A DNA stretch of 64,000 nucleotides from Eledone cirrhosa. Lineage: Eukaryota. The notes below the pieces were generated by a model. That model did not search any database and was not told where the DNA came from. It saw only the letters and a list, made by a program, of their open reading frames with translations. Numbering within the stretch: the first letter of the stretch is position 1; each line of letters begins with the position of its first letter. The DNA lies in the NCBI GenBank assembly GCA_964016885.1, contig OZ024740.1:44950001-45014000 (forward strand), read 5' to 3'. A program made the position numbers and the translations under genes. Below are positions 746 to 30,700 of this stretch, piece by piece.

Positions 746-775
746 CAACTGTAGATTCAACTTCAGACGGTTTTT
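746..775 (-). CDS. micro-exon [11 protein letters not shown]
   Basis: gcag/30 nt/gtgag. Confidence 0.9.
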
Positions 776-3700
776 CTGCACGAAAATTTAAATAATATAC
801 AATAAGGACGTTGCTAAATTATGTTACACAGAAATACACTCTATAATCATATATAATAACATATTTATGTTTTCGTACTTTTTCGTAAAATGATATCATT
901 TGATTACTATAAATATACCAGCTGTATTTAACTGGTCGTATCTTTACAGTTGCTGTAAAGATCTTAAAAACTCTGTATTCATTAGTGAATAATTAAATTA
1001 ATTTCGAAATATTTCGTAGAATTATAATAATTATACTTTGATAAAACAATCTACCAATATTAACCATTATATATACTAGAAGCTGCTTACCTATGCGAGA
1101 TTCGGTCTGGGTAACAATTTCTGTGAAATTAACAATATTATCAATTAACTATTGTTTTCATCAATTCACAAAATAAACAATCCTCATATTAGCTAGTTTC
1201 AGCAATACGTATGAGTTAATCCAGAGAGAAATATTTATCAATCAACATTCATATCAATTATCTGTAACTTAATATTAAATGAATTAATAAACATCTAATA
1301 TTTAGTGTTAAAGAATACGAAATAATATAGTTAATATTATGGTATTACTACTGATATAAATGACAATTGATATAGATTGCAATGCTATAATAGTTGCACT
1401 GGTTATAATAATATTGATAATATATTTGATTTGTTTATATATTCTATTTATATATTAAAATGTTTCAACACTTACCAACTGTGGCTTCCGCCTCAGTAGG
1501 TTGTTCTGAATATGGAATAAAAATGTTGCATATTTATCACCAAATACAAACAATATATGATAGATGTACGGACACTTTTACGAACTATTTGCGTATCATT
1601 ATTTTTCTATTTCTACTAGGTGGTGCATATTATTTTCTCTCTCTCTGGCAATATATATATTCAGAAGCCCAGATAAGTATGGGACGTTGGAAACACATTC
1701 CAATTTAACACTCAAAGTGCGACAGGCAATCTAATGAAACAGATATTTATATAAACCAATTTGAAATGCTTTGTATATGCATTATAGAAGGCCATTTGCA
1801 CATGAACTTTTAATATCCATATAAATATGCATATAAATAGTTACAAATAACTACGTAAAGTTTTTTCTAATGTCCTTTTTTCTGCCACAATAGCGGAAAT
1901 CATATATAATATAGAAATTCTAAACTATAAAACTATTTCGAAATTAGAACCATGCTCACCTTTAGGACGCTCTTCCTGTGCCACAATATCTGTGAAATTA
2001 AATTAATAAAATTGCAACTGATCTCAGGCGTAATATAGAGGTAATAATTTTTTTTCTACTAACATAGATATTTCAACGTGTGATCGTATTTGAGATTTAA
2101 TCATACAAATCGTACTTAATGGAATTGATCACAACTTATTCAATCGAAAATAAATGACACATTGAAATCGTATATAAATATCATTCCTATAAATAGATTC
2201 TTATGGACTGTTACTCTAACATATATTTACTAATGTAACTAGGTAAATATTGTTTATATATGTCTATAAATATATGCTCGCAATATGATTTTCATCTAAC
2301 AATATAAAATGCAAGCGATTACACAAGATGATACAACGACATCTTATGATATTCAACGACAAGCAGAAGCAAGAAATCGTTAAGAATCAATCTCCCACTC
2401 ACCAACTGTAGATTCCACCTCAGAACGTGTTTCTAGTGTAAAATAAAAGGAAAATACAATCCTCTCAGTTTGACCATATAGACAATAGAACCGACACACA
2501 CAAATATATTAAGGAATTAATTAGGTACTCTTTTACAAGTTAGCTATTCTTCAATAGAAATCAATGATCCAAAATTATAAAAGCTTCATAATCTGTAAAC
2601 GATCTGTGCTTGAAAGGAAATTTCCTTCATGAAAAGTATTTAAATAAGGCTGAATAATTATATTTTAGCAAACGAATACCGCAAGAAATTAGAGATTAAA
2701 TAACTTTATATGAAACCATATTGGAAGTAACAATTCTACATTTAGCTTACCTGTACGAGTTATTTTTTCTGTTACAACCTCTGTGAAATTAACGAAATAT
2801 TATATTATATATCGATATTTACTATAGTACCAACTCAATTAATATTTATTGACAAAGCAATTGCCAATTAAATAGAGAACAACCAAATCCTAGCAGTAAT
2901 TATCACTACAACATATTTCATCAAGAATGATAATTACAATAACCTCTATAGACATGACAAACCACGATATATCTTTACGAGAACACCTACTAACTAGAAG
3001 AGAACAAATGTTTCAAACGAAAATTAATGCAACATTGTGAAGCGTAAAGCAAATAAAATAGCTTAAACATCTTTTGAACATAAGAATTACTCGGCCGGTG
3101 TTTCGGAACCTTCCATTAGACGGGATAATATAACAATTATTTGAAAGTTGTATACAAATTTCATTGAGGTCTGGCTTGTGGATTGCGACTTTATCACATT
3201 TTATATGGTATATTTATACAAGACGATACAAATGGTTTGTGACATATATCTTATTTTCATGGTCCAGATATAGATGAATTATGTGTGTGACGTTCTGCGC
3301 GCGCCTAATGTTGTATGCTGGTACTTGATTGAAATTGTAGGATACATTTAGTTAGCCCTAATTCCTATATGGATGGTTGTTTATTGTTTCGTATGATTCT
3401 ACAAGAGGATTTAAATTATCTATCATCTTCATCTCCCTGAGAATCGTGTCATATGTATGCAACCGTGTAGTGTTATTTTCTTGTGAAACCTAACGTGGGA
3501 GTATGAGTGATTATTATTTTCTGGTACATTTTATTTTAGTTATTGAATACAATCATTATTTGTGTAGATTTTACGTCTTCCAATTTACCGTTACAGACAA
3601 AACAACGACAGTAAAGCCAGACACTGAAAGCGAGTGAATCTATTTCCAAATTAAACTCACCAACTGTAGATTCAACTTCAGACGGTTTTTCTGCACGAAA

Positions 3701-27700: not shown

Positions 27701-30700
27701 GGTCATATTCATAATATGACCCGTACAAATTCAGTGAGTATGTGTGCGAGATTTTGTTTGTTAGAGGGGGAAGGCACTATGTATGTGTGTTTTATGTGTT
27801 TTATTTTAGATATCAAAGGTGAGATATGTGTGATTACGTGATTTATTTTAGTTACATGTAGATATAAATTCTCCTGATTTTTTCGCTATAAACAAAACAT
27901 TGACCGTAATGCCAGACACTGAAAGCTGGAGGAAATTATTTCAAATTAAACTCACCAACAGTAGATTCAACTTCAGACGGTTTTTCTGAACGAAAGTTAA
28001 AATAAAGTAGAATAAGCATATTGTTCCAATATTTCATGCACAAATACACATGAGTATTTGTTCACATGCTTAGTTATTTATTGATAAATTTGCATTAAAG
28101 TAATTTCTTACATTGATACTATTAAATAACTATTAATGCGGCAAGTATATTTCACATGGGAATATAGGCATCCCTTAATTCCCCTTTGAAAAGTATTACG
28201 AATTAATTAGACGGTCTTAAAACCATGTTTCTTAATGTCCGAGAAAACTCAACAGTATTCATTGTAATATAAAGAATGTATAATTTATAGAATAAAATAT
28301 CTTACAATATTAGTAATGAACCGTATGTAACTATATCAATAGTGCTTACCTATGCGAGATTCAGTCTGGGTAACAATTTCTGTGAAATTAACAACAGAAT
28401 CAATTAGCTACTTTCATCAATTAGTAGAATAAATAAATCGTAAATTATCTAGTTTCAGAAATATATATCAGTGAATTTATATGGGAATATTCATCAATAA
28501 ATATTCATATAAATTACTTAAGATGTATCATGACAAAAGTATTTACAATTCAATATTTATAATCCGAGATTAGATTTCTTACATATGCATTCTTAATAAG
28601 GAAGACAATTACAATTCATTTCAATACAATAATTGTTTCTACTTTTGGCACAAAGCCAGCAATTACCCAGTACATTACTGGTACTTTATTTTATCGACCT
28701 CATAAGGATGAAAGGCAAAGTTAACCTCGGTGGGATTTGAACTCAGAATGGCAATGGCTGTAACTCTATGCGTCAAAGCATGGTGTCCGACCCTCTACCG
28801 ATACTGCCAATCCACCAATTTCAATACAATAATGATTGTTACACTGCTTCGTATAATAACAATATCGATAATATAGTTGTTTTGTGTATTCAAATTAATA
28901 GACACTTACCAACTGTGGCTTCGGCCTCAGTAGGTTGTTCTGAATATGGAATAAAAGATGTCATCAGATTTTACACCATGTAAACACAATATCAGATAAT
29001 AGAAACTCTAGTAGGGAATGATTGATTTAATATACTTTCATAGTTTTGTGAAATATCGTTCAATAATATACAATTAATTGTCTTACGTGACATATATTTT
29101 TACTTTTTTAAATATGTGGTAGAATTTGAAGACATACTTCAGTTAGAGACATAAGAAATGTTGATCAGTCATTGTAAAACAGATCAGCAGAAATTCCGAA
29201 AGTCATTCTGTATATGATGCAATAATAATTGCACGCGAATACTTAAATATTCATGCAAACGGGGTTTCAAACATTTTCGAATTTAGTGTTTAATATATAT
29301 AATCTCAGAAGCAATTGCAAAAGTAATTTATTATATAGAAACGCGAGTCATAGGAATATCTAAATAGAAACTCGCCTACCTTTAGGACGCTCTTCCTGTG
29401 TCACAATATCTGTGAAATTAATCAAATAATATTGTAATTTAATCTAACATTTTTATGAATATAAATCTGTATCAGCTAAAATATAAATATTAACTTTAGA
29501 ATGATTGCAATTTTATCAGCACACGTCACAAAGAATGATTTTATTTCAGGCGCATTGAGGTAGCATGAAGTTATAAGGAAAGGGCGTATATTATGAGCGC
29601 GCCAACGTATTTCAAATCTTAACACCCACAAATTTGGCATAAAACTATTATGCTGAACATTCGTTCATCATAATAGTTTGATACACGGTGATACACGCTG
29701 CAAGATATTCACAGACGAAAAGGTTTTAGATGCCATTTATCAATATGCTATTGCATAATGTGCCTAATATGTTGTTCATGTAGTAAATATTACAATAGTT
29801 TATAAATTTCAATATTTTGAACAAAATTGTTAACTGAGGCCATTAGAAACGTGATTTCATTGCCACAATCCTTGTTTGAACATTAGATGTTATATTAATA
29901 GATATTTAACCAATACAAAATAGCTTTTGTTATCCTAAATAAATATAAATATATATATATATATATATATATATATATATATATATATATATATATATAT
30001 ATATATATATATATATATATATATATATATATATATATATATATATATATATATATATATATATATATATATATATATATATATACATAAATATATAATT
30101 AGTTTATTCTTTCAAACCTATGTAAACTACAAGAACCTATAGATTTAACAAAGACATCAATATTAAACTTAACGACAAGCTGAAGCAAGAAATCTTTATA
30201 GAATAATTCTTCACTCACCGGCTGTAGATTCCACTTCAGAACGTGTTTCTAGTGAAAGATGTGTATAAAAATATACCACCATCAGTAAGAGTGTGTGAGA
30301 TATATGACGGGCACATAGTAAATATAAATATGGTAGTATTTTTGACAGCGTTTTTGTAAACATTTATTTTTTTAATATTTCAACCGCCCAAAGAGATACA
30401 AAGCATAAGGAATTATAGATGATCTTTACTGGAATTAACAAGTATTTCAAGAAAGATGTACAGATGAATGGCAAGTGATATATTAATTAAAATTCCGTAT
30501 ATAAATATCGCAAAAGAGGAATTTAAATAATTTGATGTAGATAGATAGATCAAAAAACAATTCTGCAATAGCTTACCTGTGCGAGTTACTGTCTCTGTTA
30601 CGACTTCTGTGAAATTAATTAAATATTTTTCAAAAAGTATGTAATAACGGATAGGGAAATTATGAACTGGTTACCTTAGAAACATGTACATGTCTATAAC

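Follow-up and report, generated by a model that had tools for sequence, protein, structure and literature searches.

How does a gene use a long ladder of exons that each encode only ten amino acids (aa)? The question is raised by a 64,000-nucleotide (nt) stretch of the cephalopod Eledone cirrhosa (GenBank assembly GCA_964016885.1, contig OZ024740.1, positions 44,950,001 to 45,014,000; called the window here), whose minus strand carries one 30-nt exon after another. A first-pass annotation had read these exons as a combinatorial isoform generator with 10-aa resolution. The reading that we favour, with somewhat better than even confidence, is that the exons belong to an array of about 262 exons in an obscurin gene, kept by purifying selection. 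The array would encode an acidic, probably disordered spacer of about 2,600 residues. The length of this spacer is likely trimmed, in the manner of titin PEVK, by skipping single exons or blocks from a path that is otherwise mostly in order.

In the AT-rich window, the 30-nt ladder of the minus strand emerged when polypyrimidine-AG ... GTRAG pairs were sought with an untrained scan; class-profile scans were then used to catalogue the copies. Positions below 1 or above 64000 continue the window numbering into the adjacent DNA. Between 746 and 30606 the class-profile catalogue holds 52 exons of 30 nt, each with AG before it and GT after it, and a 24-nt copy with a GC donor (16773-16750) brings the total to 53. 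It had been claimed that every exon ends in G and that nearly all start with AA, AG or AT. This is borne out here, as the 3' base is G in 52 of 52 of the 30-nt exons and the 5' dinucleotide is AA in 37, AT in 8 and AG in 7. All exons of the range are in phase 1, so that a GAN codon (Glu or Asp) is rebuilt at any join and any skip or combination keeps the reading frame, also as claimed. The exons referred to below are as follows.

746 to 30606, minus strand: 52 phase-1 exons of 30 nt and one of 24 nt, in the repeating order F-A-B-C-D-E
2751 to 2780, minus strand: class F exon, example copy, 10-aa peptide
2403 to 2432, minus strand: class A exon, example copy, 10-aa peptide
1960 to 1989, minus strand: class B exon, example copy, 10-aa peptide
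1476 to 1505, minus strand: class C exon, example copy, 10-aa peptide
1091 to 1120, minus strand: class D exon, example copy, 10-aa peptide
746 to 775, minus strand: class E exon, example copy, 10-aa peptide
16750 to 16773, minus strand: class B variant of 24 nt with a GC donor, predicted exon
39316 to 39339, minus strand: variant exon of 24 nt, peptide DRREAEKI
49292 to 49318, minus strand: class F variant of 27 nt that starts with TT, giving a Val junction codon (GTT) rather than Glu or Asp

The last three are probably the 24, 24 and 27 nt variants meant by the first-pass annotation. They are present, at 16773, 39339 and 49318, but only the first lies between 746 and 30606, and the 27-nt copy departs from the junction rule. 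In a chance control over 464 kb, 255 of 287 candidates on the minus strand measured 30 nt, and none of the 7 plus-strand candidates had that length; because these same exons had served to train the profile, the control is partly circular.

The array extends well past the window on both sides, from about +117.6 kb to -96.5 kb (approximately 44.85-45.07 Mb of the contig), and lies inside the obscurin gene described below.

746 to 61452, minus strand: the window's share of the array, which extends beyond the window by about 96.5 kb at the start and by about 53.6 kb at the end
1 to 17867, no strand assigned: recent tandem copies of a six-exon unit of about 2,915 bp, up to 99% identical with introns included; 17 class E copies, counting those before the window

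In total the array contains 262 usable exons, namely 244 intact exons of 30 nt and 18 length variants of 12-39 nt, which together make 2,608 codons. The first base is A in 258 of the 262 and the last base is G in 260, so the rule that the junction is always GAN, exact between 746 and 30606, is about 98% true for the array as a whole. All 18 length variants are multiples of three, a count that is not independent, as several of them came from a scan restricted to such lengths. A further 8 copies are broken; a degenerate class A copy near 45646 was left out of this number. All 38 matches of a class E probe fell inside 183 kb around the window. The exons follow the unit order F-A-B-C-D-E, with class B absent from several genomic units (9 A-to-C neighbours), and the first ~18 kb of the window is a tandem repeat with a period of about 2,915 bp. 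As an array of 30-nt exons it is unusually large, and it shows clearly how a gene can grow or shrink by tandem duplication when its exons are symmetric in phase 1.

The exons behave as coding sequence. For 139 non-redundant intact exons, with flagged copies left out, the ratio of non-synonymous to synonymous variation (pN/pS) was 0.32, measured against the class consensus and not on a tree. Among distinct variants, 70 of 132 possible synonymous changes were seen, versus 93 of 408 non-synonymous ones (p=2e-10). Conservation by codon position falls from the second (0.965) to the first (0.924) to the third (0.868). By these measures the array exons are coding and under purifying selection. The 244 intact exons encode 86 peptides, and the 97 most recent exons encode only 8. 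The composition is E 24%, T 17%, V 14%, S 9% and Pro 5%, with a Pro/Glu/Val/Lys share of 48% and a net charge of -0.16 per residue. The product is likely a long acidic spacer, of about 2,600 residues, between two runs of Ig domains, and it is probably disordered.

Could the array instead be largely neutral tandem DNA, or an over-expansion of the assembly, that contributes little to the protein? The 17 recent units are so alike, up to 99% with introns included, that their number could be mis-assembled, and one block of the array is decaying. However, these units carry private changes, for example an insertion that stretches one of them to 3,117 bp. The older, diverged copies give a pN/pS of 0.23-0.50 in five of six blocks (2.4 in a three-copy decayed tail), and some of them are spliced. 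We regard a neutral or artefactual array as very improbable.

The 3,117-bp unit owes its length to an interspersed repeat of about 190 bp, resembling a short interspersed element, at 9358-9550. Other copies of this repeat lie at 20413-20607, 26364-26536, 28628-28816 and 45923-46116. A 37-bp minisatellite (6.4 copies, 99% matches) is found at 50998-51233.

Which gene carries the array? Single-exon I-set Ig domains flank it on the same strand, upstream from +122 to +246 kb and downstream from -101 to -188 kb. There are 46 such exons of 255-273 nt around the array, one Ig domain per exon, and many of the downstream ones are set apart by a 30-nt linker exon. Further 3' follow SH3, RhoGEF, PH, Ig, at least 11 Fn3, two Ig, a kinase, an Ig and a second kinase. 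Matches to Pfam SH3_2, RhoGEF and PH occur in this order on the minus strand, as in the obscurin SH3-RhoGEF-PH module. The Fn3 domains and the two C-terminal kinases, each after an Ig, lie downstream on the same strand, an arrangement read from genomic order only. The top solved relative of the SH3 is that of obscurin (1v1c, E 4e-20; the next match has E 2e-5). An annelid (Owenia) protein, P0002, is collinear with the locus, matching the Ig at +246 kb (52%), the Ig at +204 kb, the SH3 at -193 kb (53%), the RhoGEF, the PH and the Ig. As these matches occur in order on both sides, P0002 brackets the array. For the adjacent Ig exons, the nearest named match is a protein of cuttlefish (57-67%). 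Because of the domain order, the SH3 match to 1v1c and the collinear P0002, we assign the host to obscurin/UNC-89. On every domain test run, its sequence is that of an obscurin-family member, a coleoid cephalopod gene of about 880 kb. It would be read as a single continuous transcript from the 5' Ig exons to the kinases.

Several other features of the gene were noted. A second recent tandem block lies 125 to 177 kb before the window (L003-L008), with a unit of about 2,010 bp made of one 30-nt linker exon and one Ig exon. Its Ig copies are near-identical; the Ig exon at -152206 has no donor and several linker copies have no acceptor. At least 11 Fn3 exons are spread over 270 kb between the post-PH Ig and kinase 1 (L057 to L094, 238 to 512 kb before the window); two Fn3 are listed for human obscurin A. 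The intron between the kinase regions contains a tandem repeat of about 247 bp (L083:6142-9777 and L084:113-1422). In the kinase 2 exon (L082:8774-9319, minus strand) the catalytic-loop segment reads HLNIQPEN. The usual motif has an Asp and a Lys, both missing here, and kinase 2 may be a pseudokinase. For Drosophila obscurin, it is kinase 1 that is named as a pseudokinase in the available text of a review (PMC12812942). After its first Ig, annelid P0002 has a long acidic stretch of E, T, S, D and V (residues ~100-660) without a 10-residue period, and a short acidic linker between two Ig in cuttlefish P0003 (residues ~217-232) resembles the linker exons here. On a different contig of the assembly (C10, 12.67-13.24 Mb), Ig and kinase exons form a further giant cluster on one strand, probably a titin/twitchin-type gene.

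How the array is spliced can be judged from sequence contigs of four runs, X1-X4, compared over 55700-58450. X1-X3 behave as DNA. Run X4, from another sample and not on record as RNA, contains exon-to-exon joins with CT..AC ends that are absent from X1-X3. Its five records comprise two unspliced and three spliced ones, and were assigned by matching their differences to the exon catalogue. The native copies of 55.7-58.4 kb appeared in none of the X4 contigs, a result given no weight, as contigs can show that a form is present but not that it is absent. Record 27 (207 nt) reads E73564-F72031-C71159-D70613-E70203-F68873-A68504-C. In record 25, B85049 is joined to a C copy that fits the neighbour C84655, and B85049 also follows an exon ending in TG. 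In record 29 a D is followed by an E, with the neighbours at -61440 and -62643 as the best fit. Of the 10 junctions in the three spliced records, 9 fit the neighbour order, some at class level only, and one skips an intact exon, A71688. This class A exon (45021659-45021688 of the contig, locus L021, past the window end) has an intact AG acceptor, a GTGAGT donor and an ordinary module.

A second indication of skipping comes from a copy that carries a stop codon, and from the block around it.

56571 to 56600, minus strand: class A copy, splice sites intact, interrupted by an in-frame TAG
35000 to 62000, minus strand: decaying block, in which 5 of 25 copies of classes A-F are broken versus 2 of 123 elsewhere (Fisher p=0.0016)

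The TAG is present, without differences, in a 253-nt contig of X3, possibly the source animal, and a full-length mRNA must therefore skip this copy. Besides it, the broken copies in the block are those at 52955 and 50546 (no donor), 43683 (no acceptor) and 42984 (neither). The position of the stop-bearing copy in a decaying block suggests that skipping may proceed by blocks. The higher pN/pS in this block was not significant (p=0.14). Open frames that by eye resemble a degenerate retroelement reverse transcriptase lie inside it (48454-49238, minus strand).

The opposite of a combinatorial array, one constitutive isoform with all exons, which the first-pass annotation had named as the counter-case, does not agree with the skip of A71688 or with the stop at 56600-56571. 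Another possibility is that one main exon set is used in all tissues, with only dead or weak copies skipped, so that the length shifts by evolutionary duplication and loss and not by regulated splicing. The 9 of 10 junctions in neighbour order agree with such a fixed spacer, as do the concentration of broken copies in one block, the loss of class B from several genomic units and the lack of any inclusion form of A71688. Against it stand the intact splice sites and ordinary module of the skipped A71688, and obscurins and PEVK-type segments are described as alternatively spliced in other animals in the accessible parts of three sources (PMC12812942, PMC3835035, PMC2196875). We consider a fixed spacer possible but somewhat doubtful.

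Our preferred reading, a spacer trimmed by skipping, has points against it as well. No transcript contig joins the array to the SH3-RhoGEF region or to the kinases. The splicing data amount to 5 contigs of one run, 3 of them spliced, and the spliced copies all lie outside 746-30606. As X4 is another sample, the skip of A71688 could reflect an allele without the exon, or a fixed skip, and its inclusion form was not seen among the spliced X4 contigs; the skip could thus be regulated, fixed or allelic in that sample. The pN/pS has the class consensus as its basis, not a tree, with flagged copies excluded. With a PEVK share of 48% and 5% Pro, against about 70% in titin, elasticity is an analogy.

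We then asked whether the shared Glu/Asp junction is a code for free assembly. The six exon classes fall into two families that alternate along the unit, A/C/E, whose members agree at 22-25 of 30 nt, and B/D/F, whose members agree at 16-17 of 30 nt and in their acceptors at 12-14 of 15 positions. A two-exon (20-aa) ancestor may have tripled to give the six-exon unit, which tandem duplication would then have amplified. With six classes that likely derive from two ancestors, the 260 junctions amount to about two independent observations. The rule also reaches beyond the array: of the 45 Ig exons that have a donor, 44 begin in phase 1 with Glu or Asp. Exons usually end in G just before a donor. 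We rejected the idea that the junction codon is under special selection. Of the non-redundant copies, 3 of 145 deviate at the first base of the exon, compared with 56 of 1305 for the remaining second positions of codons (p=0.27), and this base is thus under no extra constraint. Intact copies with Gly or Val junctions exist in the array, and classes D and E have a Glu at module position 7 that varies as little as the residue at the junction (26 of 26 in class D, 25 of 25 in class E). Given the two ancestral exon families and the same rule in the phase-1 Ig exons, the Glu/Asp junction appears to be inherited from ancestry and exon phase, an ordinary feature with no special code.

We also considered a free choice of each 10-aa module, in which selection would have fixed GAN at the junctions as a compatibility code. 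It has the frame in its favour, which is kept in any combination, and the distinct peptide strings from the 52 exons could reach about 2^51.6. One single-exon skip was seen, and contigs lose rare forms, so that low-level diversity could be hidden. But in-order runs dominate the contigs, the junction rule traces to two ancestors and the Ig exons, the 97 recent exons offer only 8 peptides to choose from, and the host is a scaffold inside the cell rather than a surface for recognition. We judge this very improbable. Of the proposal of a combinatorial generator, skipping has thus survived as possible and as seen once, and any-to-any choice is unsupported.

We therefore return to a spacer of adjustable length. 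In this part of the gene every exon, the Ig exons included, is in phase 1-1, and the frame would survive the gain, loss or skipping of a copy. Splicing would run mostly in order, with single exons and blocks dropped. As the modules are highly redundant, skipping would mainly alter length and charge and would not create new surfaces; length and charge would thus be the output variables. The array, its place in the gene, the selection on its peptides, the splicing of some copies and one skip are directly supported; the spacer might further act as a disordered tether or spring in muscle, and skipping might be regulated by tissue. A bolder possibility, which we offer tentatively and would not yet expect to hold, is that cephalopod obscurin became a ruler or spring tuned by splicing, with an origin independent of vertebrate PEVK. 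Its length, spanning dozens of Ig domains and up to about 2,600 residues of spacer, would then be set by muscle type in steps down to 10 residues. If different muscles do carry different spacer lengths, a second giant protein would have arrived independently at the trick known from titin PEVK. The soft-bodied muscle of arm and mantle would gain a titin-like adjustable element, and there would be a concrete handle on how cephalopod muscles tune their passive mechanics.

Obscurin is normally an M-line scaffold. Homologue searches with the SH3 and an adjacent Ig exon (the first two covering ≤2,000 aa; the 10-aa modules themselves were not used as a query) returned no public protein with the repeat and none named as octopus. 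None of the relatives compared shares more than two 6-mers with the modules or has a 10-residue period. No description of the array was found in the literature, including work on microexons in octopus or cephalopods, PEVT repeats and octopus arm-muscle titin; most subscription papers, and supplements that could hold cephalopod obscurin models, were outside the scope. The available text of PMC12198301 names Octopus sinensis only in tree legends and does not contain the word 'microexon'.

With known obscurin/UNC-89 genes, as far as the sources at hand describe them, the host shares the SH3-RhoGEF-PH module, the tandem one-exon Ig domains, Fn3, two C-terminal kinases and recent tandem exon duplication (PMC9013439). 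Human OBSCN has one Ig per exon and splice variants (PMC2196875), together with recent tandem exon duplication (PMC9013439). Ig domains before the RhoGEF are the chordate type in the accessible text of a review (PMC12812942); the gene here has the same layout, and annelid P0002 has few Ig there. The tandem Ig domains of human obscurin are described as mostly without linkers, whereas many here carry a 30-nt linker exon. The gene here also differs in that its Ig run is split by an insert of about 2,600 aa from about 262 microexons, and in that at least 11 Fn3 precede kinase 1. C. elegans UNC-89 is described as having a KSP repeat region among its Ig domains, but its RhoGEF is N-terminal (PMC2120741).

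Two other systems offer partial likeness. Mutually exclusive clusters of the Dscam type are, in the part of the source available (PMC9013439), likewise tandem duplicated exons inside an Ig-domain gene. However, one exon per mRNA is not the pattern here, where a single spliced contig contains eight array exons and seven junctions, and the copies are redundant, not diversified. The micro-exon genes (MEGs) of Schistosoma are described in the available text as encoding small secreted proteins from 10-20 exons, linked to immune evasion (bioRxiv 10.1101/2023.06.21.545858). Like the array, they have very short exons in a row, most of a length divisible by three, which permits splice variants. In our case this applies to the array only and not to the whole gene, and the product is no small secreted protein; the array is a repetitive internal segment, under purifying selection, of a giant Ig/RhoGEF/kinase scaffold.

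The array also has a parallel in the PEVK region of titin, described, in the text at hand, as more than 100 short, repetitive, alternatively spliced exons that expand by tandem duplication and encode about 70% Pro/Glu/Val/Lys (PMC6469411). As described, titin PEVK and the PEVK of insect projectin (PMC3835035) share with the array short exons in a giant muscle protein, a Glu-rich product and exon skipping. With 262 usable exons, the array also matches titin PEVK in having more than 100 short repetitive exons. It differs in its composition (48% Pro/Glu/Val/Lys, with little Pro and much Thr and Ser), in its host, which is obscurin and not titin/connectin, and in its 30-nt exons arranged in a six-exon super-repeat. 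By analogy, the array appears to work like the PEVK segments of titin and projectin, yet by neither host nor composition is it a PEVK region.

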